Of a stretch of 64,000 nucleotides of DNA, positions 1,902 through 63,021 are shown piece after piece. The notes under the pieces were generated by a model. That model was not told the DNA's origin, searched no databases, and was given only the letters and a program-made list of their open reading frames with translations. Source of the DNA: a bacterium (GTDB lineage: Bacteria; 4484-113; JAFGCY01); contig JAGRNR010000004.1 in assembly GCA_020440645.1 (NCBI GenBank), positions 12,762 to 76,761 of the forward strand, written 5' to 3'. Made by a program: the position numbers and the translations under genes. How positions within the stretch are numbered: the first letter of the stretch is position 1; each line of letters starts with the position of its first letter.

Positions 1902-4067
1902 CTACTCAAACCTGTCCAGCGCTGCCGGGATGTCAACGCCCATGTTGTGCAGGGCGAAGCACATCAGGTCGGAGAATTCCGCGATGCTCTTGGCCAGCGG
2001 CTTGCCCGCGCCATGCCCGGCCTGGGTCTCCACACGCACCAGCACCGGGTTGTCACAGGCCTGCACATGCTGGATCTGCGCCGTGAACTTGAAGGTGTGG
2101 CTCGGCACCACGCGGTCGTCCGTGTCGGCGGTGGTTGCCAGGGTCGGCGGGTAGCAGACTCCCTCGCGCAGGTTATGCAGCGGTGAGTAGGCGTACAGCG
2201 CCTTGAATTCCTCGGGGTCCTGCGGGCTGCCGAAGTCGCTTTCCCAGCCGCCGCCGGCGGTGAACTGGTTGAAGCGCAGCATGTCCATCACACCGACCTG
2301 CGGCAGGGCCGCCGCGAACAGTTCGGGACGCTGCGTCATCACCGCGCCGACCAGCAGGCCGCCATTGCTGCCACCCATCACCGCCAGTTTCCCGCGTGAG
2401 GTATAGCCGCTGTCAATCAGGAACTCGGCAGCCGCAATGAAGTCGTCAAACGCTACTTGCCGGTTTGTCTTGATAGCCGCCTGGTGCCAGGCCTCGCCGT
2501 ATTCGCCCCCACCACGGATGCAGGCGATCGCCCACACGCCGCCCATGTCCATCCAGACCGTGCGGCTGGTGGAGAAGTACGGGCCCTGGCTGGAATTGAA
2601 GCCGCCGTAGCCGTAGAGCACGGTCGGGTTGCTGCCATCCAGCTCTATGTCCTTGTGGTGCGCGAGGAACAGAGGCACGGCAGTGCCGTCCTTGCTGCGG
2701 TAGAAGCGGAACTCGCCGACGTAGCTGGACGGGTCGAAGCTCAGCTCGGGCTGGCGGTAGAGTTCGCTTTGCAGCGTTGCCAGGTTGAGGCGGTAGATTG
2801 TGCCCGGCGTCGTCATATCCGTGTAGGTGTAGAACACCTCGCTGGCATCCATCCGTCCGCCTAATCCGCCGGCACTGCCAACGCCTGGCAGCTGCAGGTC
2901 CTGTACGAAACTGCCATCCATGTCGTAGACCTTCACTGCGCTGCGCGCATCCTGCAGGTATTCGCAAAGCATGCGGCCGCCGGTCAGGCTGACGCCGGAC
3001 AGCGGAAAGCGGCTTTCCGGGACCAATTCCTGCCAGTTGGCGCGGTCCGGATTGCGGCGGTCGATCTCGACTATGCGCCCGCGCGGCGCATCGAGCGTGG
3101 TCTGGAACCACAGGCGGTCACCGTTGTTGCCAAGGAAGCCGAAGTCGGCGTCGTCAATGTCAATCAGCTTCTCGACCGTGCGCTGCGGGTCGGCGGGGTC
3201 CATCAGGTAGATCCGGTTTCCGGTGCTGCCGCGCTCGCTTAAGTAGATCACCAGCAGGTCGCGCTGCTCATTGGTGCCGGCGCTGATCCACCAGTCCGGA
3301 TGCTCGGGCAGTTCGTAAACCAGCTCATCTGCGGACTGCTCAGTGCCGATGGCATGGTACATGGTCTTCCTGTCAACGTTGGCTGCGGTGAACTCCTCAC
3401 CCTCGGCGGGGACCGGGAATGTCAGGTAGTAGAAGCCGGCATTGCCGGAGCCCCAACTGGCAACACCGAACTTGCCCCACTGTACGAGGTCCGGCAGGTC
3501 CTCACCCGTCGCCACGTCACGCACCTGCCACTCGCACCAGTCTGAACCGCTGACGCTCTTGGCATAGAGAAGCAACGTGCCGTCGTCACTGGGTTGCCAG
3601 CTGGCAAGCGAGACTGAGCTGTCATCAGAGAAGGCGTTCGGGTCAAGGATCACGCGGGCCTCACCGTCCAGGCCCTCGCTCACATAGAGCACACTCTGGT
3701 TCTGCAGGCCGTCATTGCGGGTGAAGAAGTAACGTCCACCGGCCTCGGCTGGTGCGCTGAAGCGCTCATAGTCAACGCGCTGCATCATGCGCTCGTAGAC
3801 AGCATCCCGTCCGGCGATGCCGTCGAGGTAGCTGAAGGTCAGCTCGTTCTCGGCATCGACCCACTGCTTCAGCTCATCGCTACCGAGCTCCTCCATCCAG
3901 CGGTAGGGGTCGGCTACCTGCGTGCCGTGGTAGTCGTCCACCACATCGCCGCGCCGGGCCTCGGGATAGTCGAGTCCCTGGGCAAGGACTGGTGTCAGGG
4001 CTGCCAGCGTTGCCAGCAGGGCAAAGGCCAGGATGCGGTACAGGCCGCGAGCGTGCGCGTTATTCAT
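1902..4067 (-). CDS. Prolyl oligopeptidase (S9A family serine peptidase), secreted
   Basis: Catalytic triad context GGSNGGLLVGAV (Ser), DDRVVPSHTFKF (Asp), GHGAGKP (His). N-terminal beta-propeller region. Signal peptide MNNAHARGLYRILAFALLATLAALTPVLAQG. Confidence 0.85.
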   Translation of the reverse strand: MNNAHARGLYRILAFALLATLAALTPVLAQGLDYPEARRGDVVDDYHGTQVADPYRWMEELGSDELKQWVDAENELTFSYLDGIAGRDAVYERMMQRVDYERFSAPAEAGGRYFFTRNDGLQNQSVLYVSEGLDGEARVILDPNAFSDDSSVSLASWQPSDDGTLLLYAKSVSGSDWCEWQVRDVATGEDLPDLVQWGKFGVASWGSGNAGFYYLTFPVPAEGEEFTAANVDRKTMYHAIGTEQSADELVYELPEHPDWWISAGTNEQRDLLVIYLSERGSTGNRIYLMDPADPQRTVEKLIDIDDADFGFLGNNGDRLWFQTTLDAPRGRIVEIDRRNPDRANWQELVPESRFPLSGVSLTGGRMLCEYLQDARSAVKVYDMDGSFVQDLQLPGVGSAGGLGGRMDASEVFYTYTDMTTPGTIYRLNLATLQSELYRQPELSFDPSSYVGEFRFYRSKDGTAVPLFLAHHKDIELDGSNPTVLYGYGGFNSSQGPYFSTSRTVWMDMGGVWAIACIRGGGEYGEAWHQAAIKTNRQVAFDDFIAAAEFLIDSGYTSRGKLAVMGGSNGGLLVGAVMTQRPELFAAALPQVGVMDMLRFNQFTAGGGWESDFGSPQDPEEFKALYAYSPLHNLREGVCYPPTLATTADTDDRVVPSHTFKFTAQIQHVQACDNPVLVRVETQAGHGAGKPLAKSIAEFSDLMCFALHNMGVDIPAALDRFE

Positions 4068-4222: not shown

Positions 4223-6322
4223 TCACGGCGAAGCCGTGACTCCCATGTTGTGCAGCGCAAAGGCGTACATGTCCGCGAATTCGCGCATCTCCTGGGCGAT
4301 CGGCTTGCCCTGGCCATGTCCGGCGCGGGTGTCGATGCGGATAAGCGCAGGTCTATCGCAGGACTGCACCGCCTGCAGGCGCGCGGCGAACTTGTAGCTG
4401 TGGCTCGGCACCACACGGTCGTCTGTGTCACCAGTAGTGACCAGTGTGGCGGGATAGCATGTGCCCTCACGCAGGTTATGCAGTGGTGAGTAGGCGCGGA
4501 TCGCGCGGTATTCATCCTCGTTCTGCGGGCTGCCGTAGTCGCTCTCCCAGAAGGGGCCGGCGGTGAACTGGTTGAAGCGCAGCATGTCCATCACGCCGAC
4601 TTGCGGCAGGGCGACGGCGAACAGATCCGGGCGCTGGCACAGCACGGCACCGACCAGCAGGCCGCCGTTGCTGCGGCCCTGGATGGCGAGGCGTTCGCGC
4701 GTGGTCCAGCCTTCCCTGAGCAGGTATTCTGCAGCGGTAATGAAGTCCTCATAGGCCCGCTGGCGGTTCTGCTTGATTGCCGCGTGGTGCCAGGCCTTGC
4801 CATACTCACTGCCACCGCGGATGCCGGCGATCGCGAACAGCCCGCCCATTTCGATCCAGGCCGCACGCGCCGGGGTGAACTTCGGGATCTGCGCGATGTT
4901 GAAGCCACCGTATCCGTACAGAATGGTCGGCAGGTTGTTTCCCGGCTTCAGTCCCCTTCTGTGGGCGAGGTGCAGCGGAACGCGGGTGCCGTCGGCACTT
5001 TCGTAGAACACGGTGCTGGTTTCGTAGAGCGCCTGGTCCCAGCCGTTGTCAGGTGCTGGATCAATAGCCGTGACGCTCGCATTGCCGGACGGCAGCGCGG
5101 AAATGTCAACGCGCAGGGTGCAGTCCGGTGTGATCGCATCTGTGTAGTCGAGGAAGAACTCGCTGGAGCCAGCGCTGCCGTGCATGTTTTCAACGTTGCC
5201 ATTTCCCGGCAGGGATAGCCTGTCCAGCTCAGAACCATCAGTGGCGAACAAACGCATCACACTGGCGGCATGTTCAAGGTACTGGCAGGCGAAGCGACCG
5301 CCGTACAGGGCCGCCACTCGCAGGGCCTCCGGCTGCTCTGGCACCAGCTCGCGCCAGTCTGCGGGGCCCGGATTGCCGCGCTCGACCTCCACGATGCAGT
5401 AGTTCGGTGCGGAATGGTCAGTGCGGAACCACAGCCTGTTGCCATCGTTGCCCAGGAACTGCATGCCATGCTCATAGCTGTCAACCAGCAGCTCAGGCTG
5501 GGCACCATCCAGCAGGTCCAGCAGGATGATGCGGTTGCCGGGCATCCCGCGCCGGCTGTTGTAAATCACCAGCAGGTCACGGGCATGGTTAAGGCCAAAG
5601 AAGATTCCCTCGTCCTGCTTGCCAGGCAGGGCGAACAACTGTACGTCTACTGCCTGTTCCTGCCCAAGGATGTGCCGGTGGATGCTGGCGGCGTGGCTGC
5701 CGTCCATGTGTTCACGACCCGGGCGTGGTTCGGGGTAACGCTTGTAGATGAAGGAGCTGCCGTCCGCCTCCCATGCGGCGTTCGCATACTTGCCCCAGCG
5801 GATGGTGTCCGGCAGGTCTGTGCCCGTCGCCACGTCGCGCACGCGCCAGGTGGTCCAGTCGCTGCCGCTTTCGCTTGTGCCATACAGCAGCTTGGAACCG
5901 TCGCGGGACGGTGCCCACATTGCCAGCGAGACACTGCCGTTGTCAGAGAAGCTGTTCGGGTCCAGCAGCAGGCGCGGCTCGCCATCCAGTCCCTCGCTGA
6001 CGAACAGCTGGTCCTGGTCATGGCTGCCGTCATTGAGCATGCGGAAGTACAGGCCGCCGGCCTCATGCGGCAGGCCGCGGTGGCCGCCGGTCGCCAGCCT
6101 CATCAGGCGATCCAGGATGGCGCTGCGCTCATCGATGGCGGAGAGGTAACCCTCTGTCAGCTCGTTCTGGGCATCCACCCAGGCTTCGGTCTCAGCGCTG
6201 CGGATCTCCTCCAGCCAGCGGTAGGGATCGGCCACCTGCTCGCCGTGGTAGTCATCAACAGTGTCGTCACAGCGGGTGACAGGGTAGTTCAAAGCGGGGC
6301 GTGGAAGAGGGTTGTCATTCAT
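4223..6322 (-). CDS. Prolyl oligopeptidase (S9A) paralog, no obvious signal peptide
   Basis: GRSNGGLLVGAV, DDRVVPSHSYKF, GHGQGKP; same overall architecture and clearly alignable with the adjacent 1902-4067 product (tandem paralogs). Confidence 0.85.
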   Translation of the reverse strand: MNDNPLPRPALNYPVTRCDDTVDDYHGEQVADPYRWLEEIRSAETEAWVDAQNELTEGYLSAIDERSAILDRLMRLATGGHRGLPHEAGGLYFRMLNDGSHDQDQLFVSEGLDGEPRLLLDPNSFSDNGSVSLAMWAPSRDGSKLLYGTSESGSDWTTWRVRDVATGTDLPDTIRWGKYANAAWEADGSSFIYKRYPEPRPGREHMDGSHAASIHRHILGQEQAVDVQLFALPGKQDEGIFFGLNHARDLLVIYNSRRGMPGNRIILLDLLDGAQPELLVDSYEHGMQFLGNDGNRLWFRTDHSAPNYCIVEVERGNPGPADWRELVPEQPEALRVAALYGGRFACQYLEHAASVMRLFATDGSELDRLSLPGNGNVENMHGSAGSSEFFLDYTDAITPDCTLRVDISALPSGNASVTAIDPAPDNGWDQALYETSTVFYESADGTRVPLHLAHRRGLKPGNNLPTILYGYGGFNIAQIPKFTPARAAWIEMGGLFAIAGIRGGSEYGKAWHHAAIKQNRQRAYEDFITAAEYLLREGWTTRERLAIQGRSNGGLLVGAVLCQRPDLFAVALPQVGVMDMLRFNQFTAGPFWESDYGSPQNEDEYRAIRAYSPLHNLREGTCYPATLVTTGDTDDRVVPSHSYKFAARLQAVQSCDRPALIRIDTRAGHGQGKPIAQEMREFADMYAFALHNMGVTASP

Positions 6323-6338: not shown

Positions 6339-6441
6339 CAGTGGTCAGTAGTCAGTGGTCAGTGGTCAGTGGTCAGTGGTCAGTAATGCTATCCGGTTCG
6401 ATTCATTTTCCTGACCACTGACTACTGATCACTGACTACTG
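6339..6441. repeat. Seven tandem heptamers (CAGTGGT/CAGTAGT/CAGTAAT, 6339-6387) followed by a 23-nt loop and an inverted copy (CTGACCACTGACTACTGATCACTGACTACTG, 6411-6441), able to form a long stem-loop
   Basis: Read directly from the sequence. The right arm overlaps the last codons and stop (6436-6438) of the BirA-like gene; the element lies just upstream of the peptidase-2 start (6322). Confidence 0.65.
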
Positions 6442-7389
6442 CGATTCCAGTTCCGAATAGCTTTCGATTTCATATTGATTGCCGGCCTCATCCTGCACAT
6501 ACAGATGGCCGCTGGCGAAGTCGACATGTGTGGCTGTCACCGGGATGGTTTTCCCCTCGCGATTCAGCAGCCAGCGCTGGCCAGCGCTGCGGTCCAGTTC
6601 CCGCCAGTCCGGCTCCAGTTCGCGGATCGCAGAGTCGTCCGCCGCGCTGAAGCCCTGCAAGATACCGTTGAATACCAGCTTGCCGTAGAGCCGCATCACG
6701 ATCCCGCTGAACAGGGCCTCGCGGTCCAGCTGCATCCCGCAACAGTCCCGCACTGTGGTCAGGCGATCATGCAGCTCCAGCGCGAATGCGCTAGCCGTCG
6801 AGTTCACGTTGAGACCGATTCCGATCACAAGCAGGCCCGGCAGGTGCTCTGTCAGGATCCCGCCGCACTTGCGGTACAACAGCTCACCATCGGAATCGCG
6901 GCGTGCCATCAGCAGGTCATTGGGCCATTTGATGGCGCAGATGCTGCTGGCCAGGCTGTCGCGGGCCTCATTGATTGCCCGAGTGACACGCTCACCCGTC
7001 GTGGCATTCCCATCCCCGCCCGGGTCGTCTTCCTGCTGGTAAATCCGGGCCGCGCGCCACTGTTCACGCACGAGGTTGGAAAGGCTCTGGCCCAGCAGCA
7101 CGGAAAGGGCCAGCGGCAGGCGGGGACTGGGCTCAAGCCCATTTGTGAGCGGCAGGCCAAGCGAGAACGCGATGTCCTGCCCGGGCTGCATGCTCCAGCT
7201 GCGGCCCCGGGTGCCACGGCCCTCTGGCTGGGCGTCAGTGCAGACCAGCAGCGGCTCGGTCAGCCCGCGCACGGCGAACTGCTCCTTAACGAGCTCGCTG
7301 GTGGAGGGGCAGCTTTCGACGTACTGCAGCAGCATCCGGCCATCAAGGCGGGCGGCAAGGGAGGCGGTTGCATCGAGAAGCTTATTCAC
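6436..7389 (-). CDS. birA: Biotin--[acetyl-CoA-carboxylase] ligase (group I BirA-like, no N-terminal HTH)
   Basis: Biotin-binding loop GRGTRGRSW (cf. GRGRRGRKW), KWPNDL, GGILTE, IGIGLN motifs as in E. coli BirA catalytic domain; short N-terminus lacks a DNA-binding domain. Confidence 0.75.
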   Translation of the reverse strand: MNKLLDATASLAARLDGRMLLQYVESCPSTSELVKEQFAVRGLTEPLLVCTDAQPEGRGTRGRSWSMQPGQDIAFSLGLPLTNGLEPSPRLPLALSVLLGQSLSNLVREQWRAARIYQQEDDPGGDGNATTGERVTRAINEARDSLASSICAIKWPNDLLMARRDSDGELLYRKCGGILTEHLPGLLVIGIGLNVNSTASAFALELHDRLTTVRDCCGMQLDREALFSGIVMRLYGKLVFNGILQGFSAADDSAIRELEPDWRELDRSAGQRWLLNREGKTIPVTATHVDFASGHLYVQDEAGNQYEIESYSELESQ

Positions 7390-7406
7390 AATTCATCAAT
7401 AGAACT

Positions 7407-7435
7407 TTGACCTGATGGGCTCGTCTACTTATAAT
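7407..7435 (+). promoter_or_regulatory. Near-consensus sigma70-type promoter TTGACC-N17-TATAAT
   Basis: TTGACC at 7407-7412, 17-nt spacer, TATAAT at 7430-7435; predicted TSS ~7442 upstream of the 7455/7476 start codons (SD GGGAG before ATG 7476). Confidence 0.5.
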
Positions 7436-7454: not shown

Positions 7455-8363
7455 ATGACCTTGCAGGGAGAACCGATGCGCAGTTCACTTATCACTTTGC
7501 TGGCTCTGGCGCTGCTGATCGCAGGCCATTCGGCCGCGCGCGCCGCGGAACTGACCGCGACGGATGCCAAGGTCAGCGAGAAGAAGATCACACTGAGCTT
7601 CAGCGTCAGTGAGATGCCCGAGATAGACAAGGTATTCGACTACGGCGCGAACATCGTCAAGATCAAGGTGCCCGGCCTCAACTTCGGTTCCGCCCAGCTC
7701 AAGGGCGACAAGCTGAAGGTGAGCGACGAACATGGCGAAAGCTTCTACCGCTTCACCCGCTTCTCGAAGATCGAGGGCGGCGGGATGATCTCGATTTACC
7801 TCGGCAAGCTCTGCTCACCGGCGGATGCGCTGGTGGTGCCCCGTGACGGCCGCATCGAGGTTGAGATCATCAAGCCGCTGTGGAAGCTGGACAGCAAGCC
7901 GGCAGACAACCCCGCAGCTGACAACCCGCCAGCCGACGATCCGCCGGCGAATGACAATCCGCCCGCAGACAACACGACGGAGCCCGTGCAGGCCACCCCG
8001 GCGACTGACCAGGGCGGTGACACCCAGGCCCAGCCGGTCAGCAACAACAGCAGCGCTCAGGATCCCCCGGTGCGCCCGGCCTTTGACAACAGTGGAGCCC
8101 AGAGCTACCGCAAGTTTGACCTGGACAAGGTGCCGGCCGCCAAGGTGGAGCTCAAGGGCATGCCCTTTGACGAGGCGATCCTGCGCATCGTGGCGGACAG
8201 CGGCTTCAACGTGGTTGTCGGCAACGGGATTGACGATACTGAAGTCAACCTCAACTTCACGCAGAAGGGCCTGTCGCTCAAGGCGGCACTGGACATCCTC
8301 TGCATGGCCTACGACCTGAAGTACGACGTCACGGATGACGCGATCGTGATCTCTCGCCGCTAG
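7455..8363 (+). CDS. Secreted protein with N-terminal AMIN-like beta domain, Pro/Asp-rich (P-A-D-N) linker and C-terminal STN/N0 (secretin-and-TonB N-terminus) domain
   Basis: Signal peptide MRSSLITLLALALLIAGHSAARA (likely true start ATG 7476). C-terminal VELKGMPFDEAILRIVADSGFNVVVGNGIDDTEVNLNFTQKGLSLKAALDILCMAYDLKYDVTDDAIVIS matches the STN/N0 pattern of PilQ/GspD and FecA-type receptors. Linker PADNPAADNPPADDPPANDNPPADN. No secretin C-domain. Confidence 0.6.
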   Translation: MTLQGEPMRSSLITLLALALLIAGHSAARAAELTATDAKVSEKKITLSFSVSEMPEIDKVFDYGANIVKIKVPGLNFGSAQLKGDKLKVSDEHGESFYRFTRFSKIEGGGMISIYLGKLCSPADALVVPRDGRIEVEIIKPLWKLDSKPADNPAADNPPADDPPANDNPPADNTTEPVQATPATDQGGDTQAQPVSNNSSAQDPPVRPAFDNSGAQSYRKFDLDKVPAAKVELKGMPFDEAILRIVADSGFNVVVGNGIDDTEVNLNFTQKGLSLKAALDILCMAYDLKYDVTDDAIVISRR

Positions 8364-8408
8364 GCAGCGGCAGCCAGGCATCCATGCCGGCCGACGACAG
8401 TCCGGCCG

Positions 8409-9143
8409 GTGCAGCATTCCGGGAGGAAGCACATGTCCCGACTGATCGTCATCCTGATCGCCATCGCCGCCATGTTCATGGCCGGCTCATGCGTGCCTTC
8501 GATCCACGGCATTGCCACGGAGAGCAACCTTGAGTTCCGCCCCGAGATGGTCGGGTCCTGGGTCAGCGATGACGGTGAGGCAGGCTGGGTATTCGACAGC
8601 TACGACGAGCAGCAGTACATCCTGTCGCTTTACACGCCGGACGGGCTGGATGGCAGCTTCCGTGCTGCCCTGGTGGACCTGGACGGCGAGCTGTTCCTCG
8701 ACCTGTTCCCGGATGACACCGATGAGAAATGGCCGATCAACAGCTTCTATGGCCTGCACTTCATTCCGGTGCATACCTTCCTGCATGTCGAACTGGGCGA
8801 GGGTACGCTTTCACTGCGGATGATGGACCCGTCCTGGCTGGATGCCAAGCTGCAGCAGGATCCGGAATTCGTCAGTGCCGTGAGTGAGAACATGACGGTG
8901 CTGACGGCATCAACCGGCGAGCTGCAGGCCCTGCTGCCGCAGTGGCTCAATGAAGCTCCAATCGTCGGTGGCGGCTTCATGGGCGGCGACGCCTCGCCTT
9001 TCACTGAAGCTGTGGTGCTGACACCCGGCGAGGTGATGGAACGCGAGGATATGGAGCCGGCGGAATTCATGGACATGGAAGGGCTTGATGAAATGGATGA
9101 GGTGGTGGACACGACGGAGGAGGCTCCGGTCACGGCACCCTGA
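8409..9143 (+). CDS. Acidic lipoprotein/secreted protein of unknown function (likely start ATG 8433 preceded by GGGAGGAAG)
   Basis: Signal peptide with lipobox-like MSRLIVILIAIAAMFMAGSC; acidic C-terminus (EDMEPAEFMDMEGLDEMDEVVDTTEE). No recognised catalytic motif. Confidence 0.5.
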   Translation: MQHSGRKHMSRLIVILIAIAAMFMAGSCVPSIHGIATESNLEFRPEMVGSWVSDDGEAGWVFDSYDEQQYILSLYTPDGLDGSFRAALVDLDGELFLDLFPDDTDEKWPINSFYGLHFIPVHTFLHVELGEGTLSLRMMDPSWLDAKLQQDPEFVSAVSENMTVLTASTGELQALLPQWLNEAPIVGGGFMGGDASPFTEAVVLTPGEVMEREDMEPAEFMDMEGLDEMDEVVDTTEEAPVTAP

Positions 9144-9235
9144 ACTTCAGCTGGCTTCAACAGCGGCCGATTGGCAGTCACGGTGATTTCCCGGCGCTAG
9201 AATAGGGCCGACAACACCCACGACTGAGGTATCAA

Positions 9236-10825
<1,590 letters not shown>

Positions 10826-39011: not shown

Positions 39012-39941
39012 ATGCGCAGGATTGCAACAGCGCTTATCACAGCAACTGCCGCCACAATGGCGATGCTTGGCAATGCCGAGGCCCGCGGCTTCGGTGACAA
39101 CGACACCGCGAAGTACTTCGGCAGTGGTGAGCAGGTCGTCGCCGGGATGCAGATGGAGATGGAAATGACCAAGGGCACAGCACAGATGCCGGTCGGCACC
39201 GGTGAGCACTGGGTCGCCTGGCTGGAGTTCACCACTGCTGACATTGATGCCACCAGTGCATTCATGTCTACGGTGTTCGGCTGGCAGGTGATGCCTTTCA
39301 TGGATGGCTACAGCATCTGGATGCCGGACATGGAGAAGGGTGTGCTGGGTTGCGGCCTGAGCCAGAATCCGGAGATGCCGCAGCAGACGGCCTACTACCT
39401 CTATACGCCGGACATCGACGCCAAGCTGGCTGATGTGGAGGCGATGGGCGGCAGCACCTTCATGGAGAAGATGCCGATCGCACCGGACATGCCGAACATC
39501 GCGATGTTCATGGATGCCAGCGGCGTGATCGTCGGCCTGATCGACCAGGCCCTACCGGCTGAGGACGTTGCCAACCCGGTTGGGCCCGGTGCCAGCGGCG
39601 TGCCCGGCCAGTTCTGCGGCCTCGAGATCTACAGTGGCGATGCCTCAGTGACAACGAAGTTCTACGGCAAGCTGTTCGGCTGGGGCATCAAGCCCGGCAT
39701 GGAGGGCTACCTCGACTTCCACCCCGGCAGCGGAATTTCCGGCGTGTTCCAGGGCCATACGCCGGATGCAAAGGTGATGGCTTACATCTGGAGCGATGAC
39801 GTGCAGGCCACGCTGGATGCAGTCACCGCTGCCGGCGGGACCACCTTCGGCGATGCGATGGGGATGGAGGACATTGCCACCTTCGGCTACTTCGTGGCCC
39901 CCGGTGGCCTGATGCTCGGCATCATGGGGCCAGCCAGCTAG
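39012..39941 (+). CDS. Tandem VOC-family protein with signal peptide (secreted paralog of 38166-38954)
   Basis: Signal peptide MRRIATALITATAATMAMLGNAEA; HWVAWLEFTTADIDATSAFMSTVFGWQV… and FCGLEIYSGDASVTTKFYGKLFGWGI…; C-terminal GVFQGHTPDAKVMAYIW parallels GVFQGHTPQAPVMIYIY in the paralog. Confidence 0.65.
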   Translation: MRRIATALITATAATMAMLGNAEARGFGDNDTAKYFGSGEQVVAGMQMEMEMTKGTAQMPVGTGEHWVAWLEFTTADIDATSAFMSTVFGWQVMPFMDGYSIWMPDMEKGVLGCGLSQNPEMPQQTAYYLYTPDIDAKLADVEAMGGSTFMEKMPIAPDMPNIAMFMDASGVIVGLIDQALPAEDVANPVGPGASGVPGQFCGLEIYSGDASVTTKFYGKLFGWGIKPGMEGYLDFHPGSGISGVFQGHTPDAKVMAYIWSDDVQATLDAVTAAGGTTFGDAMGMEDIATFGYFVAPGGLMLGIMGPAS

Positions 39942-40564
39942 TCCACACCCCGCTCCAGTTCAGAGATCATCCAGTCCGCCAGGTCAGTGTTGCCAAGTGC
40001 AGCCTGCCTGGCGGCTACGTTTCTGATGTCCTCTGCATTCTTATTCTGGTTGAGCTTGAGCTTGCCGTCCAGCCTGTCAACGAGCATCCTGAAGGCCACG
40101 ATGCCACGCAGCAGGCCATCGCGTTTACGCTCATCCAGCATTGCCATCCGCCAGCCGCTGTCGCCCGGTTCCATGGCTTCAACAAGTCGCTCGATTGCCA
40201 GCGCGCTGTCTGCCCCATCCGCATACTTCACCGGCTTGCCGGCGGCATGCACTGCGATGTAGTTCCAGGTCGGCACCTGGCCCTCACTGGCATAGTCGGA
40301 AGGTGAGACATAGCCATGCGGGCCACTGAAAACGACCAGTGCTTCCCGCTCACCATCAAACGAATCATGCAATGGGTTAGCACGGGCCAGGTGTGCCACG
40401 AATTCGATGGATCCGTCGGGCAGTTCATCGACGAGGAAGGGTAGGTGTACGCCCTGCATCCGGCCGTCACGGTCGCTCATGCTGAGCACGCCGAAGGGAT
40501 ATTCGCGGATCAGCGCGATGATGCGCTGCCTGTCGGAGAGCCTGTAGTAGTCGGGCGACCACAT
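39938..40564 (-). CDS. PaiB-family FMN-binding negative transcriptional regulator-like protein (PNPOx-like fold)
   Basis: N-terminus MWSPDYYRLSDRQRIIALIREYPFGVLS…VHLPFLVDE…GPHGYVSPSDY…VPTWNYIAVHAAG matches the PaiB pattern. Its stop overlaps the stop of the convergent VOC gene (shared CTAG at 39938-39941). Confidence 0.65.
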   Translation of the reverse strand: MWSPDYYRLSDRQRIIALIREYPFGVLSMSDRDGRMQGVHLPFLVDELPDGSIEFVAHLARANPLHDSFDGEREALVVFSGPHGYVSPSDYASEGQVPTWNYIAVHAAGKPVKYADGADSALAIERLVEAMEPGDSGWRMAMLDERKRDGLLRGIVAFRMLVDRLDGKLKLNQNKNAEDIRNVAARQAALGNTDLADWMISELERGVD

Positions 40565-40573
40565 CGCCCGGTC

Positions 40574-41098
40574 CTAGTTGATCGCCCAGATGTCGGGCAG
40601 CTGGCGCCACTTCTGCTCGAAGTCCAGACCGTAGCCCACAACGAACTTGTCCGGGATCTCGAAGCCGGTGTAGTCGATCTTCATCTCAACCTTGCGGCTG
40701 TGCGGCCGGTTCAGGAAGGCGCAGACATGCACACTTGCCGGCTTGCGATGCTGCAGCTGCTCGAGGATGTAGTTCAGGGTCAGGCCACTGTCGATGATGT
40801 CCTCGACCACGATCACATGCTCGCTTTCGATGCTCTCGTCCAGGTCCTTGATCAGGCGCACGACGCCGGTGCTGGAGGTGCCGGAATAGCTCGATACCGC
40901 GAGGAAGTCGTAGCTCAGCGGGACCTCGATGCGACGCACCAGGTCTGACAGGAAGATGTTGGCCCCGCGCAGCACGCCGACCAGATGCACCTTGCGACCG
41001 GCGAAGTCCTCGGTGATCTGCGCGGCGATCTCGTCCACGCGCTTGTCGATTTCAGCAGCCGTGTAAAGCCGCGTGAAGTAGCTGGGGATTTCGAGCAT
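40574..41098 (-). CDS. hpt: Hypoxanthine-guanine phosphoribosyltransferase
   Basis: PRPP-binding motif HVIVVEDIIDSGLTL; overall length and order typical of Hpt. Confidence 0.85.
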   Translation of the reverse strand: MLEIPSYFTRLYTAAEIDKRVDEIAAQITEDFAGRKVHLVGVLRGANIFLSDLVRRIEVPLSYDFLAVSSYSGTSSTGVVRLIKDLDESIESEHVIVVEDIIDSGLTLNYILEQLQHRKPASVHVCAFLNRPHSRKVEMKIDYTGFEIPDKFVVGYGLDFEQKWRQLPDIWAIN

Positions 41099-41285: not shown

Positions 41286-41312
41286 TGCCCGTTGAATGCA
41301 AGGACGGACCAT

Positions 41313-42743
41313 ATGAATAACTGGGGTCGAAAATCAGATGGAACACGGGGTTTCTCGCTCATCGAGCTCCTCGTTGTGCTGCTCATTTTCGCGATCCTGA
41401 TCGCGATAACTGTTCCGAGCTTCATCTCCTCACGGCCGGAGCGCAACCTCGCAAGTGCGGTGGACATCTTCGCCACCGACTTCGGCTATGCGCGTGCCAA
41501 GGCCGAGCAGACCGGCAGCCGGGTGTTCATGGCATTCGACATGTCGCCGGATGCGCGCCAGTGTGAGGGCTGGTGGGACACCACCAGTGACACCGCGAGC
41601 AATGCCGCCCCGAGCGGGACCCCCAGCGGCAGCTACATCAACCCGAACAACCCGGGCATCAGCCGTTCGGCGAACACCTACTTCATCGTGGAGGAACGTC
41701 CGCGCTGGATCGAGGTGGATTCCAACGGCTTCAAGCCCTATGACAGCGGCTTCAACCCGAGCCTCGTGACCGGCCAGGCGCCGTTCACCTACCTCGACTG
41801 GCTGAACCAGTACGACGCGTGGAACGCCGGCATCGCCGACTACCCCGTCGAGCCGCTCTATCCCTACGACGCTGCAGAGACCTTCAGCGCGGCGGGCCCG
41901 GAGGATGGCGCCTTCATGGACATCTCAACCCCGCTGATCTTCTATCCGCAGAACCTCGGCCTCGGTGGCAGTGACACCCAGGACTATGTGGACCGCTGGA
42001 TCGACGGCCCGACCGCCCCGACCTGGGACACCGGCGACCGCAACGACCAGGCGATGAAGGTGTTCTGCGCAGCGGACGAGCAGGAGATCCTCAGCTTCGA
42101 CCGCACAATCGACTTCGACGTGAACGGCCTGCGCATCTACACCCATGGTGTGGACAGCCAGCGTATGAAGGACCAGGTCCTTGACTACATCATCCTGAAG
42201 AAGGTTGAGCTGCCCGAGGAAGTCTTCTTCCTGAACCCCTGGAAGAACACCTACCCGGCCGGCTGGGAGGATGTGAACAACGACGGCACGATCGACGAGT
42301 TCAAGTACAAGGACATGCAGTTCCTGCAGTACCTGATCACCTTCTCCCCCGACGGTGAGGTGTACAAGTCCGAGTGGACCTTCGACCCCGAGCCCTTCCC
42401 GGACGGCAACTACTACGGCCAGTCCCATGGCCGGATCCAGGACCGCCTGGAGGCCAGTGGCGTGCATGCGGTCTACATGGTGATCGCGGAGACCGTCGAC
42501 TTCGGTTCAACCTCTCCGATCGCGAAGACCATGGTGCAGGACAACAAGAAGGCCAACAGCCAGAGTGCCGGCAGGGTGTTCACGTACTGGAACAACAGCG
42601 GCAAGTACTTCGTGGATGACTACACCCCGAACGATAAGGCGCATTTCATCGACCGTGATGACCCGCGCCTGGACCTCGGTAACGTCTCCCCCCAGGTGGC
42701 ACGCGAGTTCGTGTACCGCCAGGACTTCCTCTCGAAGATCTGA
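41313..42743 (+). CDS. Large (477 aa) prepilin-type N-terminal cleavage/methylation domain protein (pseudopilin-like 1)
   Basis: Class-III signal MNNWGRKSDGTRG|FSLIELLVVLLIFAILIAI with Glu+5. The ORF track starts at an upstream TTG (41292). Body rich in aromatic/acidic residues, no other domain recognised. Confidence 0.75.
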   Translation: MNNWGRKSDGTRGFSLIELLVVLLIFAILIAITVPSFISSRPERNLASAVDIFATDFGYARAKAEQTGSRVFMAFDMSPDARQCEGWWDTTSDTASNAAPSGTPSGSYINPNNPGISRSANTYFIVEERPRWIEVDSNGFKPYDSGFNPSLVTGQAPFTYLDWLNQYDAWNAGIADYPVEPLYPYDAAETFSAAGPEDGAFMDISTPLIFYPQNLGLGGSDTQDYVDRWIDGPTAPTWDTGDRNDQAMKVFCAADEQEILSFDRTIDFDVNGLRIYTHGVDSQRMKDQVLDYIILKKVELPEEVFFLNPWKNTYPAGWEDVNNDGTIDEFKYKDMQFLQYLITFSPDGEVYKSEWTFDPEPFPDGNYYGQSHGRIQDRLEASGVHAVYMVIAETVDFGSTSPIAKTMVQDNKKANSQSAGRVFTYWNNSGKYFVDDYTPNDKAHFIDRDDPRLDLGNVSPQVAREFVYRQDFLSKI

Positions 42744-42812
42744 TTACTGTAATTCAAAGTTCCCTGATGGGTAACATAAGGTATGCGACAGGTGGATGAA
42801 TTGAGGCACAAC

Positions 42813-43898
42813 ATGCGTATCAGGATGGCAGGCAGGCGGGGTTTCTCCCTGCTGGAGCTGATGATCGCGCTTACGATCCTTGCGATCGCACTGGTTCCCG
42901 TGGCCTACTTCTACAGCAAGTCACTGCAGATGGTGGAACAGTCCACCGTCCGTACCCGTGCCCTGATGCTGGCCCAGGAGCGCCTGGCGGAACTGCGCCA
43001 GATGCCCTATGACCAGATCTACTCGAACGTCACCCCGAGCCCCGTGCAGGTGCGTGTCTACCAGGCGGAGAGCGCCATCGACACCGCGACTGCAGACTGG
43101 TTCGGTTACGATTACGAGAGTGCCGGTGACTGGCAGGCGATGTGGCACTACCCGCTGCCGCTGGACTACAACCCGTATGACCCGGCGACCCAGGGTTACA
43201 ACAACGCCGTCGGCGTGAACCGCAATACGCCGTCCAACCCGATCGGCGGCATGTTCACAGGGCATGTGAACTTCAACACGCCCAACAGCTTTGATTACGA
43301 GTACGAGCCGATCGGTTTCTACCGCTTCCGCATCAACCGCCAGAACGCCCTGCTTGAGCAGGCCGGCCCAGGTGTGGACCCGGTCAATGTCCCGGACATC
43401 GCCGACGTGCGCATGATCGACCGGCGCAGCCTGCCCCAGGTGGAGCAGCGCCTGGACAACCTCAACAACATGGACAATTTCCGCACGGGCTACGACCAGC
43501 TCGTGGAGCAGTTCGGTGAGTTCGGCCGTCGCACCATCGTGCTTGACGTGGTGACCAATGTCGGCGGTGAGAACAACCCGCTGGACACTGACGGAGACAA
43601 CTTCGACCCGAATGACGACCGCGACGGCGGTGCCACGGCACTTGACCCGTACCCGATCACCAAGGGACCGGACAACAAGTTCCAGGTGCTGACCCGCGGC
43701 GGCGGCCCCGGCAAGCTGATCATCGTGCAGGTGTTCTGGCTGCCGCGCAACGCCCCGGAGGGCTACATCCCGTTCAGCGACCTGAATGTGATCGACCTGC
43801 GCACCTTCGTCTCCCCGACGAATGAGTGGACCACGCTGGGCGAAGGCACGGGTCCGCTGACCAACAACAAGAGCCTGATCATCACCCCGACCAACTGA
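42813..43898 (+). CDS. Prepilin-type N-terminal domain protein (pseudopilin-like 2, ~361 aa)
   Basis: MRIRMAGRRG|FSLLELMIALTILAIALVPVAYFY; likely start 42813 (ORF track 42783). Confidence 0.7.
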   Translation: MRIRMAGRRGFSLLELMIALTILAIALVPVAYFYSKSLQMVEQSTVRTRALMLAQERLAELRQMPYDQIYSNVTPSPVQVRVYQAESAIDTATADWFGYDYESAGDWQAMWHYPLPLDYNPYDPATQGYNNAVGVNRNTPSNPIGGMFTGHVNFNTPNSFDYEYEPIGFYRFRINRQNALLEQAGPGVDPVNVPDIADVRMIDRRSLPQVEQRLDNLNNMDNFRTGYDQLVEQFGEFGRRTIVLDVVTNVGGENNPLDTDGDNFDPNDDRDGGATALDPYPITKGPDNKFQVLTRGGGPGKLIIVQVFWLPRNAPEGYIPFSDLNVIDLRTFVSPTNEWTTLGEGTGPLTNNKSLIITPTN

Positions 43899-44154
43899 TC
43901 GGACCGGAACATAGTCCGCTGGCCATGGTCAGACAGGCCGGCCGGAATCGCAGGGCAGGGAGAATACGGGTGGAAAAACCGAATTCTTGTCGGAATTCCC
44001 AGCTTGATGGCTTGCGCGGATTGCGTGCGGCCTTGTTTGGAAGCGGCCTCAGGCCGGTGCAGGAGCTTCCGGGGCTTTTAGGTATTGGAAGTAACCTGTT
44101 CTATAATAAAACGTCTACATACTCGACGCTACACCTAGCACTGAGGCGTATCTC

Positions 44155-45177
44155 GTGGTGAAAACTATGCACAGAGACACAAAGGCTTTTACCCTGGTTG
44201 AGTTGCTGGTGGTAATGGGCATCATCCTGATTCTGGTGTCCATCGCCCTGCCGGCGACCAATTCCGCTCGGTCAAAGGCCAAGGACATGGAAGTCAAGAA
44301 GGGCTGCAATGACATCCAGGCGGCACTGGAGAAGTACGGGGTGGCCAAGGGTGGCTATCCCGGCGTCCAGTGGATCCAGGACTCAAACGGCGATTACTTC
44401 GCCGGCCCGGGACTGATCGGCGGCCTGCCGACCTACAACGGCGCTGAGCCCCAGAAGGACTTCTACGTCCCGAAGGATGACAGCGATGCGCGTGGTCCCG
44501 GCAACCAGGCTCCCTACTTCCCGGACGAGACCCCCAACCCGTCCGTGCTGGATGCCCTGATCGTCAGCGGAGAGCTGACGGATTACCCGGCAAACCCCTT
44601 CGTGAGGACCAACGGTGGCCTGAAGGCGCAGATGTCCAACCTGTTCCTGTTCAGCCCGCAGGGCGTGAACGGTGACACCCAGCCGGACGTGAGCGACCCG
44701 AACACCATCAACTGGAACCGCTACCTCGGCAGCAGCCAGTCGATGCGTGCCAACTACGCCGACTACGGCCGTGGCCACTTCACCTACATCCCGCTCAACC
44801 CGCAGAATCTCAGTGGCACGGACTTCGCCGGTAACTGGGGCGCACTGAGTGGCCAGGACCGCAGCGAGTACTACGCCAAGTGCAAGGGCTACATCCTGAT
44901 CGGCTGGGGCGGAAGCCGCGCCGATGACAGCCAGGCCAAGGGCCTGAGCGAGAAGTACTGGAGCAACAGCGCCAGTGCTTTCGACTTTGACAACAGCCTC
45001 GTGGCGGACCCGCTGGAGCAGGTGCTCTCGAATGTCACCCCGGCGGGCATCCTGCGCGGTGACGTAACGGACAGCGACGGCGGCATCGGCACCTTCGGCC
45101 AGACCCTGCCGGGCGGCGGTCCCGACATTGACAACGCCTTCTACGGCGCTACCTTCATCAAAATTACCGGGAGCTGA
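44155..45177 (+). CDS. Type IV pilin/GspG-like pseudopilin (candidate major subunit; 336-340 aa)
   Basis: (MVKT)MHRDTKA|FTLVELLVVMGIILILVSIALPATNSARSKAKDMEVKKGCNDIQAALEKYGVAKGGYP resembles GspG/PilA N-terminal helix and alpha-beta loop. Ala rather than Gly at -1. A 257-nt upstream intergenic region contains a perfect TATAAT (44102-44107). Alternative start ATG 44167. Confidence 0.75.
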   Translation: MVKTMHRDTKAFTLVELLVVMGIILILVSIALPATNSARSKAKDMEVKKGCNDIQAALEKYGVAKGGYPGVQWIQDSNGDYFAGPGLIGGLPTYNGAEPQKDFYVPKDDSDARGPGNQAPYFPDETPNPSVLDALIVSGELTDYPANPFVRTNGGLKAQMSNLFLFSPQGVNGDTQPDVSDPNTINWNRYLGSSQSMRANYADYGRGHFTYIPLNPQNLSGTDFAGNWGALSGQDRSEYYAKCKGYILIGWGGSRADDSQAKGLSEKYWSNSASAFDFDNSLVADPLEQVLSNVTPAGILRGDVTDSDGGIGTFGQTLPGGGPDIDNAFYGATFIKITGS

Positions 45178-45180
45178 TTG

Positions 45181-46212
45181 ATGCAGAGCAGATACATCAA
45201 GCCTGACTGGGGCACACAGCTGCGGGGCTTCACCCTGATCGAGCTGCTGGTCGTGATCGTGGTGATCTCCATCCTCGTGGCGATCGCCCTGCCGAACCTG
45301 CAGAAGGTCAAGCGCAAGCAGATGGAAGCCCAGACCGCGACCCAGGTCAATGAGATCCAGAAGGCGCTCGAGGCATTCGGTACCGACCATAACGGCCAGT
45401 ACCCCTTCCGCGTGACCTGGTATGACAACGCCACGGTCAGCGACCCGAACTTCGACCCATACGTCGCCCGTGACACGGGCAGCGGCCTGACCAGCGACCC
45501 GGGCGACCGCTTCTCGCTGGGCATCTGGGGTGGCGCGGAGCGCGTCACCCGCGAGGGCTACAACATCAACACGGTGCAGGACATCGAGCGTCCTGACCTG
45601 CTGCCCCAGCCCTACGCCGCAAACTGGAACTACAACAACTTCTACAACCGCTTCAACCAGTACAGCGACCCGCTGGTGGCGATGGGCTACATCGGCGAGT
45701 ATCCGCCGAACCCCTTCATGAAGCGCCAGATGGGCAACGTGCTCTGGGAGTACGGCGATGCCAACTGGAAGAACGGTGGCCCGGCGCGCCTGGATCCCTC
45801 GATCCCCGGCGAGAACGTGGTGCCGACCCCCGGCGACTTCACCTACACGCACTTCTACGGTGTTGACAACGCCAACGACTACACCTACCCGAAGGGCGTG
45901 GTGGCCGGCAAGGCCGGTTACAACGTGACCTACCCGAGCGGCGCGGTGCAGGACGGCAAGTACTACATCGACGTCGTTGACAGCTACCAGATCTGGGGCT
46001 ACGGCGACATGCGCCTCAACGGCAGCTGGTACGTGAACTACCCAAACAACTCACTCGGCCTTGCGGTGCGCGGCAATGAAGCCGCCGGCAAGGACTGGAA
46101 TGGCAACGGTACGAAGGACATGTTCGAGCGTGGTCTGGTGACCTACGCCAAGCGCAGCGGTCAGGGGTCGACTACGGCAACTGACAACAGCGGCAACAAG
46201 GTTGAATTCTAA
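45181..46212 (+). CDS. Prepilin-type N-terminal domain protein (pseudopilin-like 4, 343 aa)
   Basis: MQSRYIKPDWGTQLRG|FTLIELLVVIVVISILVAIALPNL; start 4 nt after the preceding stop (coupled). Confidence 0.7.
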   Translation: MQSRYIKPDWGTQLRGFTLIELLVVIVVISILVAIALPNLQKVKRKQMEAQTATQVNEIQKALEAFGTDHNGQYPFRVTWYDNATVSDPNFDPYVARDTGSGLTSDPGDRFSLGIWGGAERVTREGYNINTVQDIERPDLLPQPYAANWNYNNFYNRFNQYSDPLVAMGYIGEYPPNPFMKRQMGNVLWEYGDANWKNGGPARLDPSIPGENVVPTPGDFTYTHFYGVDNANDYTYPKGVVAGKAGYNVTYPSGAVQDGKYYIDVVDSYQIWGYGDMRLNGSWYVNYPNNSLGLAVRGNEAAGKDWNGNGTKDMFERGLVTYAKRSGQGSTTATDNSGNKVEF

Positions 46213-46247
46213 TCGCAATGGCAATGGCATTGACAGGAGCAGAAACG

Positions 46248-47312
46248 ATGCGCAGTCGCAGGGGTTTTACACTGGTGGAGATGCTGGTCGTGATCGGCAT
46301 CATCGGACTGCTGGTGGTGACACTCGTCCCACTGGTCAAGGGTGCACAGGTCAAGGCCAAGGAAGCGGCCATCAAGGCCCAGATGTCCGGCATCGAGACA
46401 GGGCTTGCCAACTATGCCCAGAACCACAATGGCAACTACCCCGGCGTGGCACTGGATGCGATGGCGACCTACCAGGACCATGCGCTCGGTGATCCGCAGT
46501 TCTATGCGGGTGGCGGCGCCGGTTCACTGGCCCCTCAGGCCAACCAGATGGTCAACGGCATCCTCGGTGGCGTTGGCCACTACAACGGCTCCAGCACAAA
46601 CGTGTTCGAGCAGATCAAGAACGTCAAGGACACCCCGTTCAGCGGCAATGAGGACACCGCCCGCCTGTTCGACTCCCTGATCCTGACGGACAGCATGCCG
46701 GAGTACCCGGCCAACCCATTCGTCACGAACGTGAACACCGCCAGGCGTGACCAGATGCGCAACGTGTTCCGCTTCAACATCAACATCGGCGGCGGTTTCG
46801 ACCCGGCTGATGTGTTCGAGCCGGGCAACCCCTCTCCCGGCGGTTATGACGTCTCCTTCTACTGCTCGATCAAGGGTGATGGCAGCCAGCCGAACGTAAC
46901 CACTGCCACGGACCCGTTTGACAGTGCCCGTACGCTGGTCTCCCAGGACCCGACCGGCCTGCCGCTGGCGAGCTTCACCCCGGACGACTACGTCTTCGGC
47001 CCGAATGATGGCCGTTACTTCGCCCCCGGTGATTTCGCTTACGTGCCCGTACTGAGCGCGAGCGCAAATCCCTTCGGTGACAGCGCGGCCACTCTCGAGA
47101 ACGAGACCTGGAAGTGGGGCACCAATGTGAGCGGGTACCTGCTTTTCGCCTACGGTGATGCAAAGCACGAGACCAAGGAATACGAGGACGAGCAGCGCGA
47201 GTTCTTCGACACCGGCCTGCCCGGTTACGGCAGCCCCGGCGTGGATACCCTTTATGAGTGGTACGTGCTGCAGCTGTTCGAAGGCGCAATCTTCTACAGC
47301 AAGAAGGTCTGA
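46248..47312 (+). CDS. Prepilin-type N-terminal domain protein (pseudopilin-like 5, ~354 aa)
   Basis: MRSRRG|FTLVEMLVVIGIIGLLVVTLVPLV; AGGAG SD 8 nt upstream of ATG 46248 (ORF track starts 46218). Confidence 0.7.
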   Translation: MRSRRGFTLVEMLVVIGIIGLLVVTLVPLVKGAQVKAKEAAIKAQMSGIETGLANYAQNHNGNYPGVALDAMATYQDHALGDPQFYAGGGAGSLAPQANQMVNGILGGVGHYNGSSTNVFEQIKNVKDTPFSGNEDTARLFDSLILTDSMPEYPANPFVTNVNTARRDQMRNVFRFNINIGGGFDPADVFEPGNPSPGGYDVSFYCSIKGDGSQPNVTTATDPFDSARTLVSQDPTGLPLASFTPDDYVFGPNDGRYFAPGDFAYVPVLSASANPFGDSAATLENETWKWGTNVSGYLLFAYGDAKHETKEYEDEQREFFDTGLPGYGSPGVDTLYEWYVLQLFEGAIFYSKKV

Positions 47313-47318
47313 TGCCGC

Positions 47319-47337
47319 GCGCCGGCTTATCCGGCGC
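47319..47337 (+). terminator. GC-rich hairpin GCGCCGG-cttat-CCGGCGC just after the stop of pseudopilin-like 5 (no T-tract)
   Basis: Perfect 7-bp stem read from sequence; lacks U-tract, so its function as a terminator is uncertain. Confidence 0.3.
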
Positions 47338-47473
47338 TGGCCAAGGGCAATTTCCGGCGGGGGCTTTTGAGTGCCGCCGCAGCTGGGAATAACAGGTATA
47401 GGCACCCCGTCTGCTTACAGATTGGCGGGGGCACTCTCAGGCCGGCTGGCGACAGGCCGGCCCAGGTGAGCGG

Positions 47474-49330: not shown

Positions 49331-49344
49331 CCTGAAGCAAGAGA

Positions 49345-49379
49345 ATGGCCCGGCAACGTCCGGGCCATTTTTGCTTTTA
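49345..49379 (+). terminator. Canonical intrinsic terminator ATGGCCCGG-caacgt-CCGGGCCAT + TTTTGCTTTT
   Basis: 9-bp GC-rich stem, 6-nt loop, downstream T-tract; 15 nt after the stop of gene 47474-49330. Confidence 0.7.
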
Positions 49380-49458
49380 CTGCACGGATGTGAAGGCTCA
49401 ATTTTCTATATATATGGTGTAGATTCCCAGCTCTTGGGAATAATAAACTGCGAGGCTT

Positions 49459-60249: not shown

Positions 60250-63021
<2,772 letters not shown>

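Follow-up and report, generated by a model that had tools for sequence, protein, structure and literature searches.

Secretin heads, the AMIN and N0 domains that position and anchor pilus and secretion machines, are to our knowledge found only as parts of pore-forming proteins. In the PilQ secretin of Pseudomonas aeruginosa the AMIN domains bind peptidoglycan and the N0 domain binds the HR domain of the inner-membrane lipoprotein PilP, and PilQ monomers that have yet to assemble use both AMIN and N0 to bring PilMNOP to the future poles before the pore forms (PMC5285504). A pore-less architecture of AMIN and STN domains, in some proteins with TPR repeats, was listed in 2008 with the prediction that it serves to localise complexes in the periplasm (de Souza et al., PMC2572700). 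Here we describe a gene, referred to as X, that occupies a 302-codon open reading frame (ORF; 7455-8363, forward strand) in a 64,000-nucleotide stretch of contig JAGRNR010000004.1 (positions 12,762 to 76,761 of the forward strand; assembly GCA_020440645.1), which we call the window. The profile homology of X to the N-termini of PilQ proteins extends over its full length, and X is very probably paralogous to the periplasmic head of the secretin of type IVa pili.

Searched exhaustively, 1.84 billion representative sequences yielded 77 matches to the X profile, about 30 of which are stand-alone proteins of 268-430 residues. The matches that come next (E 1e-13 to 1e-6) are proteins of 520-830 residues that are secretins by their Pfam content (STN, Secretin_N and Secretin), and the whole of the X profile, with its beta domain, linker and N0, aligns with their N-terminal 300-470 residues; X stops exactly where these secretins run on into N1. 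When the X family was aligned by hhalign with one of them, P0061, the probability was 98.1% (E 1.4e-13) and the alignment ran from profile positions 13-366 to PilQ residues 4-437, while BLASTP of X against P0061 aligned the N0 parts with 29% identity over 68 residues (E 2e-7). The gene for P0061, a 787-residue secretin, closes an operon that encodes a T2SSE ATPase, a T2SSF platform protein, a pilin, PilM and three small proteins, and that is by its gene content a type IVa pilus pilB/C...pilMNOPQ locus, with a PilP-like protein encoded at 8857-9777 of locus L024; the gene for a second related secretin, P0064, comes after pilM and pilN. The P0061 operon lies on contig JAGRNT010000001.1 of the metagenome-assembled genome (MAG) 'UBP7 HKST-UBA03' and an orthologue of X with 85% identity lies on contig JAGRNT010000012.1 of the same MAG, and X and a complete PilQ thus coexist in this sister genome. 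An initial annotation, made from the sequence of the window alone, had likened the architecture of X to the N-terminus of a PilQ-type secretin, and this layout is now backed by profile homology. The same family profile returned nothing meaningful, and no AMIN protein, from the sequences of the PDB.

By its conservation X is a real and functional gene and not an ORF that arose by chance. Among 5.8 billion proteins a word-indexed search found 12 homologues with identities from 98% to 38%, and the window matches the complete MAG genome CP060262.1 ('Planctomycetales bacterium HK-STAS-UBP7_A-1', 4.11 Mb) with 98% identity for X. The family is small, with about 30 clusters at 50% identity, and all of its named members are from UBP7 or 'Planctomycetales' MAGs; every one of the approximately 30 stand-alone members is intact in frame and ends at the same point, right after N0. 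A codon comparison with five orthologues gave ratios of nonsynonymous to synonymous substitution (dN/dS) of 0.07-0.26 in the two folded domains and higher values, 0.17-0.34, in the linker between them, and both folded domains are shown to be under purifying selection. No NCBIfam family is matched by X, and a search of the six-frame translation of the window with a hidden Markov model (HMM) of the family revealed no paralogue.

Translation of X is more likely to start at ATG 7476 (MRSS...) than at ATG 7455, since homologues begin with MRSS or MRR, GGGAGA stands 4 nt upstream of the former codon, and the latter is missing in one of the related loci (L006). The product had been described as secreted, and its N-terminus does resemble a signal peptide: A28 and A30 of the A-x-A site are invariant in an alignment of 12 members, and the predicted structure has a helix at residues 10-24. 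Cleavage, predicted by eye without a dedicated predictor, would follow this site. No lipobox cysteine is found at the cleavage site, where A-x-A stands instead, and X is therefore not a lipoprotein; the pilotin-like role that had also been suggested is for the same reason unlikely.

The structure of X was modelled with AlphaFold2 from a 12-sequence alignment. Its N-terminal domain (residues 31-139) is predicted to form eight beta strands, with predicted local distance difference test (pLDDT) scores of 80-90, and these are arranged in four strand pairs as in the AMIN domain of AmiC and the B2 domain of PilQ, so that on the model the domain is correctly termed AMIN-like by fold. Membership of the Pfam AMIN family (PF11741) did not follow: there is no match for the whole of X (E<=1), for the isolated N-terminal domain (E<=10) or for any of the 12 family members. 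The AMIN signature, Rxxx[D/E] on the second strand of the pairs, is strongest in pairs 2 and 3 (de Souza et al., PMC2572700); in X it is present in one of the four pairs, pair 4 (R133-I-E-V-E137), and the corresponding positions of pairs 1-3 read KITLS, NIVKI and MISIY. The Pro/Asp-rich PADN linker noted in the initial annotation is disordered in the model (pLDDT 30-36) and encoded in part by a 15-bp tandem repeat at 7905-7973 (4.4 copies, 70% matches). The spread in length within the family, from 268 to 428 residues, comes mainly from this region, and the repeat suggests that the linker changes in length through repeat expansion and contraction.

The C-terminal alpha/beta domain (residues 232-301, pLDDT 60-80) has the two beta-alpha-beta-type units of an N0 fold, and the structural matches of X include both PilQ B2 and PilQ N0. 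We judged STN/N0 membership against PF07660 and PF21305, and secretin membership against PF00263. The assignment to STN/N0 holds by fold and by profile homology to secretin N0 domains, but at the level of Pfam PF07660 is reached only below its gathering score of 28.4 bits, with 18.9 bits for the whole of X and 23.1 bits for the isolated domain; it is sub-threshold in all 12 family members (best E 2.2e-5), and so is Pfam FecR_C, which matches X about as weakly. Neither Secretin nor Secretin_N has a Pfam match in X, which ends two residues after N0 and is followed by an ORF for an unrelated lipoprotein. The absence of a pore domain was thus correctly recognised at the outset, and with neither N1 nor pore X falls outside the secretin family by its sequence. 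A Pfam scan found no TPR in X.

With this anatomy X would be a soluble periplasmic PilQ head, comprising a signal peptide, an AMIN-like domain, a flexible Pro-rich tether and N0, and ending short of N1 and the pore. By analogy with PilQ, the beta domain would tether X to the cell wall and N0 would bind a PilP/GspC-type partner or enter the N0 ring of a secretin, and X could then act in trans as an anchor, placeholder or competitor that tunes where, and how many, type IV filament machines assemble. Binding to peptidoglycan, the nature of the N0 partner and the logic of regulation are all inferred. Because X has the two parts of the PilQ module that recruits PilMNOP and lacks the pore, we tentatively favour the view that it serves type IV filament machines as a free adaptor or regulator whose N0 is tethered to peptidoglycan, a view that has a slightly less than even chance of proving right. 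The initial annotation had thought of X as a trans-acting, cell-wall-anchoring partner of the secretin encoded elsewhere in the window (60250-63021); such a role is possible, more plausibly for a PilMNOPQ machine than for that secretin.

Several observations weigh against the adaptor reading. Since Pfam AMIN fails and the signature is confined to a single strand pair, membership of the beta domain in the AMIN family is not established and peptidoglycan binding is not assured. The N0/STN fold also serves in FecR-type anti-sigma factors and in TonB-dependent transducers, as well as in DotD and phage hub proteins (FecR/PupR, DotD and the hub proteins are among the structural matches), and the partner of X could differ from that of PilQ. 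The co-occurrence of X and pilQ is seen in one genome only. Finally, in approximately 17 distinct loci drawn from genomes and metagenomes X never adjoins a pilus or secretion gene, and its sole constant neighbour is birA.

Two features came as a surprise, the constant divergent pairing of X with birA and the conservation of its promoter at the nucleotide level. The near-consensus promoter TTGACC-N17-TATAAT reported previously is present and matches the sigma-70-type consensus at 11 of 12 positions (7407-7435). The spacer between the two genes, which is 60-120 bp long across loci, is kept at the nucleotide level between loci whose proteins are only 30-45% identical, and the conserved region (7382-7435) is also found upstream of the X orthologue in loci L001, L002, L005, L006, L008, L010-L013, L019, L020 and L022. 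The conserved pattern is GAAC-TTTGAC-N8-11-CGTC(T)-N3-5-TATAAT; searched as CTTTGAC-N8-13-CGTC-N3-7-TATAAT, it has a single occurrence in the window, where 0.00 are expected, and a single one in each of 14 loci, in every case immediately before X. That this is a generic promoter of the lineage can be rejected, since about 300 kb of related sequence contain the composite motif nowhere but upstream of X. Locus L005 retains GAAC-N16-CGTCC and loses the well-spaced TTGAC. Promoters of extracytoplasmic function (ECF) sigma factors have AAC at -35, CGT or CGTC at -10 and a T-tract after the AAC (PMC5758882), and the GAAC-N16/17-CGTC arrangement upstream of X looks like a promoter of this general form. 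Taken alone that arrangement is uninformative, with 5 occurrences in the window against 4.3 expected and hence no enrichment, and it was dropped as a motif for a regulon in the window. No sigma factor is present among 10 small window ORFs that were scanned and no regulator was identified; a candidate ECF sigma/anti-sigma pair at 39938-41098 proved to be a phosphoribosyltransferase and a flavin mononucleotide-binding protein.

Abutting the promoter of X are two 9-mers resembling DnaA boxes (TTATCCACA type), the first of which overlaps the annotated GTG start of birA in the window. This box is perfect in the window and in L006, L008, L010, L012, L014 and L019, has one mismatch in L001, L011 and L013, and is absent in L020 and L022; it is intergenic in L013 and so is not merely birA coding sequence. 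A chromosomal replication origin is unlikely here, given just two boxes and a position of about 0.66 Mb in the 4.11-Mb reference genome. A search of the whole window with Rfam found nothing. We infer from the sequence that the X promoter is tightly regulated, possibly dual (sigma-70 and ECF-type), with an upstream tandem-repeat operator, and that it is interlocked with the 5' end of birA. Expression of X in its proposed role would thus appear to be under tight control, through a deeply conserved promoter with sigma-70 and ECF-like elements at the birA start. The adaptor reading could be extended to a specific mechanism in which X marks or blocks cell-wall sites for PilP/PilMNOP-type alignment complexes and is switched at this birA-interlocked promoter by an envelope-stress ECF sigma factor or a response regulator, which would make it a new class of secretin-derived trans-acting regulator; in this detailed form we think the proposal distinctly improbable.

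The lack of linkage to pilus genes and the ECF-like promoter would both fit a scaffold of the envelope or cell wall that is independent of pili, and this is the main rival. X would still descend from a PilQ head and would serve, for example, as a peptidoglycan-associated adaptor linked to envelope stress or cell division, under a promoter controlled by an ECF sigma factor or response regulator. Envelope-stress regulons do have ECF promoters with AAC and CGTC elements (PMC5758882), AMIN domains target septal peptidoglycan in other proteins (PMC2572700), and both GAAC-N16/17-CGTC and the tandem 11-bp-spaced repeats are kept across deep divergence. The closest sequence relatives of X are, however, all secretins, and neither the scan of small ORFs for a sigma factor or regulator nor the unenriched count of the GAAC...CGTC element in the window lends this scaffold any help. 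We regard it as unlikely, though it is the alternative that survives best.

Far less probable is a role in cell-surface signalling, in which the STN/FecR_C-like domain of X would work with a TonB-dependent transducer or an anti-sigma factor, an alternative that the initial annotation had kept in view. The FecR_C match, about as weak as that of STN, speaks for it, and the ECF-like promoter signature leaves a weak link between X and sigma-factor signalling. But only the C-terminal part of X resembles a FecR-type protein, the N-terminus carrying a cleavable signal peptide in place of a transmembrane anti-sigma part; there is no FecR domain, plug or barrel (Pfam has no Plug or TonB_dep_Rec match, and X ends after STN); and none of the loci has a TonB-dependent receptor, FecR or ECF sigma-factor gene next to X, the search of these neighbours for pilus, secretion and other sigma-factor genes being equally negative. 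The sequence relatives are moreover secretins, in which the N-terminal domain is aligned too.

A periplasmic function related to biotin deserves mention on account of birA, and we give it a similarly slight chance. In every locus birA is directly upstream of X and divergent from it (tblastn), down to 28-31% BirA identity, and the other neighbours change: the outer genes upstream of birA include peptidase S9 genes, YtxH and a dockerin-domain protein, and those downstream of X include a lipoprotein gene together with a fumarase/aspartase-type lyase, cupin, TauE and a PKD-domain protein. In L012 and L021 the order is birA, X, bioY, with the biotin transporter gene 5 bp after X, but this adjacency is found in one lineage only. 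The birA product matches Pfam BPL_LplA_LipB (E 2.6e-10) and TIGR00121 (E 1.5e-20), has the motif GRGTRGRSW at residues 57-65 and, as a class I enzyme, contains no DNA-binding domain; for that reason it cannot regulate X. Nothing in the AMIN-like or N0 folds points to vitamin binding, and the interlocking of the X promoter with birA would by itself explain a pair that is never split, given a shared control region that could not be divided without harm to an essential gene.

The proposal with which the initial annotation had begun, that X supplies in trans an AMIN/N0 head missing from the window secretin, now has very little in its favour. X does have the architecture of a head without a pore, both genes are lineage-specific, and they share a contig in a relative too (P0005 and P0087, on a 69-kb contig). 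We collected and aligned homologues of the window secretin and modelled its N-terminal 547 residues, and contrary to the assertion that it lacks an AMIN domain, the model has two eight-strand beta domains (residues 28-129 and 167-265, pLDDT about 70-85), which are undetected by Pfam, and an N0-like region of lower confidence that is split by an insertion of about 40 residues. The X family HMM has no match to this secretin; hhalign of the X family against its sequence alone aligned only the signal peptide, and against the secretin with its own alignment recovered N0 only (secretin residues 377-505, E 6.4e-4, 28% probability). By model and profile the window secretin is complete and has only a remote relationship to X. 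The PilQ to which X is related is complete as well, and 52 kb of unrelated genes lie between X and the window secretin. The idea that X is a decaying, functionless remnant of a partial pilQ duplication, for which its end exactly where PilQ enters N1 might be cited, is refuted by the low dN/dS of both domains, by some 30 diverged clusters with intact frames and a common end point, and by the conserved promoter and signal-peptide cleavage site, and retains next to no likelihood.

Table 1. Features of the X locus and the window secretin used for comparison (positions in the window; aa, amino acid residues)
Feature	Position	Strand	Basis or remark
birA, class I biotin-protein ligase without N-terminal helix-turn-helix; divergent neighbour of X	6436..7389	-	Pfam, TIGR00121, tblastn
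Two DnaA-box-like 9-mers, TTATTCACA (7382-7390) and degenerate TCATCAATA (7393-7401), 11 bp apart	7382..7401	+	12-locus anchored alignment, TTATNCACA scan
X promoter: TTGACC (7407-7412)-N17-TATAAT (7430-7435) over GAAC (7402-7405)-N16-CGTCT (7422-7426)	7402..7435	+	
Shine-Dalgarno-like GGGAGA (7466-7471) and more likely start codon ATG 7476 of X	7466..7478	+	Sequence, homologue starts, loci alignment
Sec signal peptide of X, MRSSLITLLALALLIAGHSAARA followed by AE, predicted cleavage after A-x-A	7476..7544	+	12-member alignment
N-terminal AMIN-like beta domain of X, aa 31-146, eight strands in four pairs	7545..7892	+	AlphaFold2 model
Disordered Pro/Asp/Asn-rich linker of X, aa 147-220, PADN-type repeats, length varying across the family	7893..8114	+	Model, repeat, alignment
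C-terminal STN/N0 domain of X, aa 221-302, then stop codon	8115..8363	+	Model, profiles
Putative lipoprotein gene (MSRLIVILIAIAAMFMAGSC...), acidic C-terminal tail, 70 bp after X	8433..9143	+	ORF; GGAGGA before ATG 8433
Window secretin: two AMIN-like domains (60331-60636, 60748-61044), N0 (61378-61764), Gly-rich insertion, pore domain	60250..63021	+	Comparator only

The gene that follows X in the window encodes a putative lipoprotein whose C-terminal tail is strongly acidic and which matches no family in Pfam or NCBIfam. We found no terminator in the interval that separates it from X (8363-8433), and the lipoprotein gene may therefore be transcribed with X. By tblastn it is confined to a close clade (L001 and L006-L010, 52-100% identity) and is absent beside distant X orthologues. 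On the other side of the locus, two adjacent large ORFs lie upstream of birA, at 1902-4067 and 4223-6322 (both reverse strand; 721 and 699 residues), which match in size and position the tandem prolyl-oligopeptidase paralogues (Peptidase_S9_N plus Peptidase_S9) annotated in the syntenic loci L001 and L006 and are putatively assigned as such here.

The surroundings of the window secretin are unusual in their own right. Its 959-residue ORF contains a very long Gly-rich low-complexity insertion with GGGG(Q/N/R) runs within the N1/Secretin_N region (residues 554-724). Directly upstream of it is a gene for a giant PKD-domain protein of 3507 residues (49459-59982, forward strand), which itself comes after six consecutive genes with N-terminal methylation (pseudopilin) motifs (41292-49330, forward strand), and there is no ATPase or platform gene between the pseudopilin-motif genes and the secretin (41292-59982). 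Together these genes form an atypical locus resembling those for type II secretion or type IV filaments, with a giant protein that is possibly a cargo or associated with a fibre.

A free-standing copy of a secretin head that is maintained by selection suggests that bacteria can use the recruitment module apart from the channel, and such a copy could anchor the machines, hold a place for them or regulate their assembly by competition. The domain composition of an unusual secretin from UBP7, a little-known candidate phylum, is corrected as well. Conservation of a control region between loci whose proteins have diverged this far is rare, and the region may lead to a regulon in organisms that have not been cultured. 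Until a function is shown for X, the practical impact stays modest.

Among known systems, the FecR and PupR proteins have a C-terminal signalling domain that matches the N0 of X in fold and, weakly, through Pfam FecR_C; FecR proteins are membrane-anchored anti-sigma factors encoded beside ECF sigma-factor and transducer genes, and X has none of these features. DotD of the Legionella type IVB system and the BfpB-associated lipoprotein of the bundle-forming pilus are, as X is, stand-alone carriers of an N0 or N0-like domain, but they are lipoproteins without an AMIN-like domain or long tether and have no sequence relationship to X. TsaP and FimV (LysM), GspA/ExeA and GspB/OutB (for OutB, PMC9239104) act in trans as separate proteins of the periplasm that connect a secretin machine with peptidoglycan, contact the secretin N0, or do both. 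All are built on other folds (LysM, Pfam PG_binding or the HR domain), and unlike X none is known to copy the head of the secretin itself. The pore-less AMIN and STN proteins have canonical AMIN domains and TPR repeats, which X lacks, and are uncharacterised (PMC2572700). Other pore-less STN proteins appear as distant matches to the X profile, namely P0068, P0070, P0071 and P0081 (tandem STN/N0, 200-380 residues) and P0060 (TPR plus STN), and these too are apparently uncharacterised.

We found no paper on a stand-alone AMIN and N0 protein or on a free paralogue of the PilQ head, and the family that X represents is uncharacterised and restricted to its lineage, though its evolutionary origin is clear and its mechanism can be tested. 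Its architecture alone would be of little surprise to a specialist; it is the strict selection, the invariant pairing with birA and the deeply conserved promoter that call for explanation. Of known entities, the N-terminal region of PilQ comes closest to X. X differs from PilQ in being without N1 and pore, and so cannot be an outer-membrane channel, in being encoded alone and never in a pil operon, and in a beta domain without the Pfam AMIN signature; what it has in common with PilQ of P. aeruginosa, Myxococcus xanthus and Neisseria meningitidis is the order of modules, from signal peptide through AMIN-type domain and disordered linker to N0.

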